Shown piece after piece: positions 24,172 through 24,236 of a DNA stretch of 64,000 nt. This DNA comes from Escherichia coli (lineage in GTDB: Bacteria; Pseudomonadota; Gammaproteobacteria; Enterobacterales; Enterobacteriaceae): NCBI RefSeq assembly GCF_003334305.1, contig NZ_QOWS01000002.1; one strand, written 5' to 3'. The position numbers and the translations under genes were made by a program. The notes beneath the pieces were generated by a model. That model was not told where the DNA came from, did not search any database, and saw nothing but the letters and a program-made list of their open reading frames with translations. Within the stretch, counting starts at the first letter, position 1. Every line of letters starts with the position of its first letter.

Positions 24172-24176
24172 ATAAC

Positions 24177-24203
24177 TCAAGTCCGGCGGGTCGCTGCCGA
24201 TAA
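24177..24203 (+). promoter_or_regulatory. Sigma-28 class 3 promoter for flgKL
   Basis: TCAAGTCC-N11-GCCGATAA in the flgJ-flgK spacer (exact -10, 5/8 match at -35). Confidence 0.5.
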
Positions 24204-24236
24204 TACTCTGTAATTGAAGGCTTATAAGGAACCTCC

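Follow-up and report, generated by a model that had tools for sequence, protein, structure and literature searches.

The 65 bp between flgJ and flgK in the 64-kb window, by which we mean the whole stretch of Escherichia coli chromosomal DNA that was analysed, are almost certainly the known class 3 promoter of the flgKL operon, driven by FliA (sigma-28) and supplemented by read-through from the flgB promoter. This promoter is already known, being part of the textbook account of the flagellar hierarchy in enteric bacteria, and because its sequence here is identical to one with a published function, we identify the gap as the flgKL class 3 promoter itself rather than as a relative of it. The whole gap is base-for-base the same as that containing flgKp (FliA/sigma-28) in E. 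coli K-12, including the same 28-nt motif and the same context, flgBCDEFGHIJ-flgKL-rne; outside the promoter, one base of flgK codon 4 is not shared between the window strain and K-12 (ATC versus ATT), a change that looks synonymous. The initial annotation had labelled the region a candidate. Its reading as a promoter stands, while the candidate status does not, as the promoter belongs to the canonical class 3 set. Hollands et al. count flgKL among eight well-characterised sigma-28 promoters, saw no CRP binding, and mutated the -10 element of aer from GCCGATAA to GCGCTCAA (PMC2859248).

The flgJ stop codon (TGA) occupies 24169-24171 and the flgK ATG begins at 24237, leaving an intergenic gap of exactly 65 bp (24172-24236) whose elements are listed in Table 1. 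The enteric sigma-28 consensus has been quoted as TAAAGTTT-n11-GCCGATAA (PMC2859248). Relative to this consensus, the -35 element of the gap matches at 5/8 positions, and the 11 bp between the two 8-mers in the window sequence is the canonical sigma-28 spacing. An exact sigma-28 -10 element with correct spacing had been described in this interval from the sequence, and both the sequence and its coordinates were borne out. The ATG of flgK, a late flagellar gene, follows on the same strand 33 nt past the end of the -10 element. From the usual promoter geometry we infer a transcription start near G24210, 7 nt past the -10 element, and a leader of about 27 nt.

Table 1. Coordinates of the flgKL promoter, its operon context and other sigma-28 motif matches in the window
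Feature	Position	Strand	Basis or remark
flgMN class 3 promoter, TAAAGATT-N11-GCCGATAA	about 16034-16061	-	upstream of flgM, at flgA 3′ end
sigma-28 look-alike inside flgD	18115-18142	+	matrix match
flgJ, end of FlhDC-dependent class 2 operon flgBCDEFGHIJ	23230-24171	+	RefSeq annotation
-35 element, TCAAGTCC	24177-24184	+ (flgK strand)	sequence; within published FliA ChIP-seq motif
spacer, GGCGGGTCGCT, 11 nt	24185-24195	+	sequence
-10 element, GCCGATAA	24196-24203	+	sequence; 8/8 to sigma-28 consensus
predicted 5′ UTR of class 3 flgKL transcript	24210-24236	+	usual promoter geometry
Shine-Dalgarno sequence, AAGGAA	24226-24231	+	sequence
flgK (hook-associated protein 1), first gene served by promoter	24237-25880	+	ORF list, RefSeq
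flgL (hook-associated protein 3), second gene of operon	25892-26845	+	ORF list, RefSeq
flgL 3′ UTR with intrinsic terminator of flgKL operon	26846-26923	+	terminator scan
sigma-28 look-alike antisense in pabC	39748-39775	-	matrix match
sigma-28 look-alike at thiK end, ~40 nt before nagZ	49887-49914	+	matrix match

Published experiments place FliA on this sequence. ChIP-seq in MG1655 yielded a FliA peak at 1137565, assigned to flgKL and 47-fold above threshold (Fitzgerald, Bonocora and Wade 2014, Table 2, PMC4183435), and the 28-nt motif reported for that peak, TCAAGTCCGGCGGGTCGCTGCCGATAAT, is exactly the window sequence at 24177-24204. Genomic SELEX with the RpoF holoenzyme detected a peak of 27.2, termed high-level, in the flgJ>flgK spacer, and RpoF-dependent transcription of flgK in vitro is among the results cited in the same paper (Shimada et al. 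2017, PMC5493296). Deletion of fliA lowered flgK expression 5.5-fold and flgL expression 4.9-fold, and overexpression of fliA raised them 2.2-fold and 1.8-fold, respectively (Zhao et al. 2007, PMC1935009). With purified components, in the PURE transcription-translation system, sigma-28 activated the flgK promoter strongly and FlhDC did so weakly (bioRxiv 10.1101/024604). ChIP-seq, SELEX, the drop in fliA deletion strains and activation in the PURE system thus agree with the earlier proposal that flgKL has a late sigma-28 promoter of its own.

Read-through into flgKL is also well documented. RT-PCR over the flgJ-flgK boundary gave a product in motile MG1655 and none in an flhD deletion (PMC4183435), and our terminator scan of 23700-24700 found no terminator-like hairpin between flgJ and flgK; the sole terminator-like site in that interval falls within flgK, at a frequency close to that expected by chance. 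Both results support the claim in the initial annotation that flgKL is expressed by read-through from flgB as well. Since no terminator follows flgJ, read-through provides an earlier phase of flgKL transcription, and together with the operon's own promoter this makes flgKL dual-regulated (class 2 plus class 3).

The occurrence of read-through also lends some substance to the view that the sigma-28 motif is a chance resemblance and that flgKL is expressed solely from the flgB class 2 promoter, as does the modest effect of a fliA deletion in one RNA-seq data set, in which flgK fell from 318 to 138 and was not flagged as significant; the authors concluded that, in the conditions they used, flgKL was transcribed mostly from the FlhDC-dependent promoter (Fitzgerald et al., PMC4183435). 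The same study, however, combined an flhD deletion, in which the flgB promoter is silent, with overexpression of fliA, and found that FliA alone brought flgK back to wild-type levels or higher, whereas flgB was not rescued. This result contradicts the one outcome that the initial annotation had set against its own reading, namely that flgK transcripts arise only by read-through. Binding of FliA and of its holoenzyme to the gap and activation of the promoter by sigma-28 in vitro likewise speak against a chance match.

The weak response to FlhDC in the PURE system is the sole point in favour of another arrangement, an internal FlhDC/sigma-70 (class 2) promoter in the gap to which the sigma-28 look-alike would be secondary. 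We consider this very improbable, as FlhDC ChIP-seq gave its sole flg-region peak at flgA/flgB and none at flgJ-flgK (PMC4183435), a computational search reported no FlhDC site upstream of flgK (bioRxiv 10.1101/024604), and our promoter scan of 23700-24700 found no sigma-70-like -35/-10 pair. Furthermore, the conserved blocks described below fit the sigma-28 consensus and not TTGACA/TATAAT.

How far the motif itself identifies the promoter was assessed across the window. The consensus with three or fewer mismatches occurs at three places, versus 0.46 expected: one within flgD, one at the flgMN promoter and one at the flgKL site. From 23 published FliA ChIP-seq motifs we built a position weight matrix, with flgKL and flgMN left out and the spacer columns ignored. 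On this matrix the flgK site reaches 16.4 bits and ranks fifth among 127,946 positions in the window, and only 0.0015 matches this good are expected on the plus strand of the gap, where the motif could be placed at 38 positions; this again argues against chance. Use of the full 28-column matrix, spacer included, left the ranking essentially unchanged, and 16.4 bits falls within the 9.2-28.7 bits of the 23 building sites, although the latter were scored on the full 28 columns. A 5/8 match in the -35 element is within the range of FliA-bound motifs, as illustrated by modABC (TCAACTTC) and fliL (TCAAGACG) in the table of PMC4183435.

On the side of a chance resemblance, three intragenic sites in the window score level with or above the flgK site (16.6-17.3 bits on the spacer-free matrix). 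These look-alikes, in flgD, pabC and thiK, have no entry in the published FliA ChIP-seq table (PMC4183435) and are probably non-functional. At its location the flgK match is far better than chance would give, yet sequence alone is not decisive: because three intragenic matches score about equally, motif score by itself does not identify a promoter. What tells the real promoter from the look-alikes is its location and conservation, and it is conservation and the published experiments that decide the matter.

The GCCGATAA octamer is present nine times in the window, versus 2.25 expected. One exact copy, at 16817-16824 on the plus strand, lies in the flgA-flgB intergenic class 2 promoter region, 57 nt upstream of the flgB ATG (16881), where it is paired with a poor -35 sequence (CCCATTTT, 4/8). 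As Fitzgerald et al. list no FliA peak at this octamer (PMC4183435) and flgB shows no FliA rescue, it seems to be a sigma-28-like -10 embedded in an FlhDC/sigma-70 promoter.

Within E. coli the flgJ-flgK region is nearly invariant. A 2.7-kb query spanning it is 100% identical to strain A7 and has matches in all 5426 complete E. coli genomes, and a 111-bp query is matched at 99% identity or more in 5376 of 5425. In a divergent strain (94% identity) both promoter elements are kept and two spacer bases are changed. Five of the E. coli matches to the region are on plasmid-labelled records, a surprise for a flagellar operon that belongs to the core chromosome.

A broader comparison, with one genome per species, covered 80 species of Enterobacteriaceae (loci L004-L083) whose FlgK proteins are 71-96% identical to the query; the genera include Escherichia, Citrobacter, Salmonella, Enterobacter, Kosakonia, Kluyvera, Buttiauxella, Cedecea and Atlantibacter, and the scope is this one family. 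The arrangement TCAAGT-NN-N11-NNCGATAN stands directly upstream of flgK in all 80 species, with an invariant TCAAGT in the -35 element and a spacer of 11 nt in every case. The -10 element is GCCGATAA in 57 species and otherwise one of the variants GCCGATAC, GTCGATAA, TCCGATAA or ACCGATAA, with CGATA invariant throughout, and its end is 30-43 nt from the flgK ATG. When the sequences are anchored on the motif, mean information is 1.71 bits per column in the -35 8-mer and 1.82 in the -10 8-mer, compared with 0.44 in the spacer and 0.6-0.8 in the 25-nt flanks; the spacer is constrained in length and free in sequence. In 77 of the 80 species no sigma-28 matrix match on either strand of a locus of about 6.6 kb outscores the site upstream of flgK, and in the remaining three this site comes second.

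A motif held in every species, at a fixed spacing across a variable spacer sequence, is a further argument against chance, and we regard that explanation as barely conceivable. A chance match accompanied by read-through only is ruled out by the ChIP-seq, SELEX and in vitro activation data, by the rescue upon fliA overexpression and by the conservation in 80/80 species.

Two of the public records in the comparison are probably contaminated or mislabelled. A metagenome-assembled genome titled 'uncultured Raoultella sp.' (L024, CAAEVH010000050.1) carries a 122-nt flgK-upstream stretch identical to that of Citrobacter sp. On2M (L020), and the record 'Chryseobacterium sp. 18061' (L076, CACSKA010000011.1) contains a typical enterobacterial flgJ-flgK locus whose corresponding 122 nt are close to those of 'Citrobacter sp. 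18056' (L071), from the same project.

Two conserved blocks at a fixed distance, separated by a free spacer, read as the signature of a bipartite protein-DNA site and not of an RNA helix. Since the region is transcribed within flgB-L and conservation extends to parts of the 5′ UTR, we also considered that the blocks might not be a promoter and might work in the RNA instead, by marking where the long transcript is processed at the flgJ-flgK junction, by folding there or by influencing translation. This is scarcely credible, as the two blocks are not complementary to each other, the combination of fixed spacing with free spacer sequence does not suit a helix, the E. coli junction/UTR folds no better than shuffled sequence (z = -1.48), and an Rfam scan of the whole window returned no family in the gap. 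A structured leader was likewise rejected: the predicted 5′ UTR folds no more stably than shuffles in E. coli, in Enterobacter hormaechei (z = +1.39) or in Salmonella enterica subsp. arizonae (z = +0.78). Elsewhere in the window, the Rfam matches at the gathering threshold were rne5 (the RNase E 5′ UTR element; 30252-30588, minus strand), SraB sRNA (32449-32617, plus strand) and the PyrC leader (8471-8520, minus strand), as expected in this E. coli region.

The flgKL class 3 promoter can be compared with two others. That of Salmonella enterica flgKL has the same position and architecture, and differs in its spacer and 5′ UTR sequences; in subsp. arizonae (L028), TCAAGTCC-N11-GCCGATAA is found upstream of flgK. 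The Salmonella promoter is attributed to Kutsukake & Ide 1995 and Wozniak et al. 2010 in PMC4183435, where it is also reported to matter for swarming and for the repair of sheared flagella. Within the window, the closest counterpart is the flgMN promoter, which resembles that of flgKL in its bipartite N11 motif, its exact GCCGATAA, its nesting as a FliA promoter in a class 2 unit (flgAMN) and its dual regulation. The flgMN site has a single consensus mismatch and is identical to a published FliA ChIP-seq motif 48-fold above threshold (PMC4183435). Its -35 element, TAAAGATT, is nearer to consensus (7/8) than the 5/8 of flgKL, and at 24.5 versus 16.4 bits it is by far the best sigma-28 matrix match in the window.

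The operon context is that expected of a flagellar locus, with the RefSeq gene order murJ, flgN-flgM-flgA on the minus strand, flgBCDEFGHIJ, flgK and flgL on the plus strand, and then rne. Downstream of flgL, the terminator scan located a strong intrinsic terminator, a stem-loop at 26887-26915 with 12 pairs (9 G-C) followed by T8. FlgO is a small RNA of ~75 nt, Hfq-bound and sigma-28-dependent, that is processed from the flgL 3′ UTR of its parental mRNA and is reduced in a fliA deletion (Melamed et al. 2023, eLife, PMC10578931). The 3′ UTR in the window corresponds to this published source and matched no Rfam 15 family at the gathering threshold. The FliA dependence of FlgO probably runs via the flgKL promoter.

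In the reading we favour, the two elements, TCAAGTCC near -35 and GCCGATAA near -10 with 11 bp between them, are recognised by RNA polymerase carrying FliA, which would begin transcription some 25-30 nt upstream of the flgK ATG. FlgM sequesters FliA until the hook-basal body is complete, and export of FlgM then switches on class 3 promoters (PMC4183435, introduction). In this scheme flgKL is at first expressed weakly, from the distal end of the FlhDC/sigma-70-dependent flgB-J transcript; once FliA is free, flgKL is made from its own promoter to yield the hook-filament junction proteins FlgK and FlgL, and the 3′ UTR of this transcript would give rise to the FlgO sRNA.

Two features of the comparison go beyond the established promoter. 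Position 2 of the -35 element (window 24178) is C, where the consensus has A, in all 80 species, and in almost every one TCAAGT is itself preceded by C; this is a conserved departure from consensus and not drift. We found no discussion of this shared departure in the flgKL and FliA literature searched. The second feature is that the flgK leader, measured from the -10 element to the ATG, comes in two lengths, of 30-33 nt in Escherichia, Citrobacter, Salmonella and Kluyvera, and of 39-43 nt in most other genera, among them Enterobacter, Kosakonia, Leclercia, Lelliottia and Phytobacter. The long leader contains a conserved block, CAGGAC..GTGTCTGAAAG or CAGGAC...GTCTGAAAG (L046, 2466-2482, and about 50 other loci), and has no significant fold (z = +1.39, the value for the E. 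hormaechei leader). This block adds a second GGA, located 5′ of the one in the ribosome-binding site, and we speculate that the two might form a post-transcriptional control site, for example of the CsrA type. That the -35 departure reflects a selected sub-optimal or constrained element, or that the leader block is such a control site, is in our estimation unlikely. If true, a sub-optimal -35 element might tune flgKL output relative to that of fliC, or a constrained one might overlap the site of a second factor.

As a calibration of promoter prediction, the flgKL case is instructive in that a call made from sequence only was right, though intragenic sites with equal scores have no published FliA binding. 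For the bacterium, the flgKL promoter means that, once the hook is complete, the proteins of the hook-filament junction can be made independently of FlhDC.
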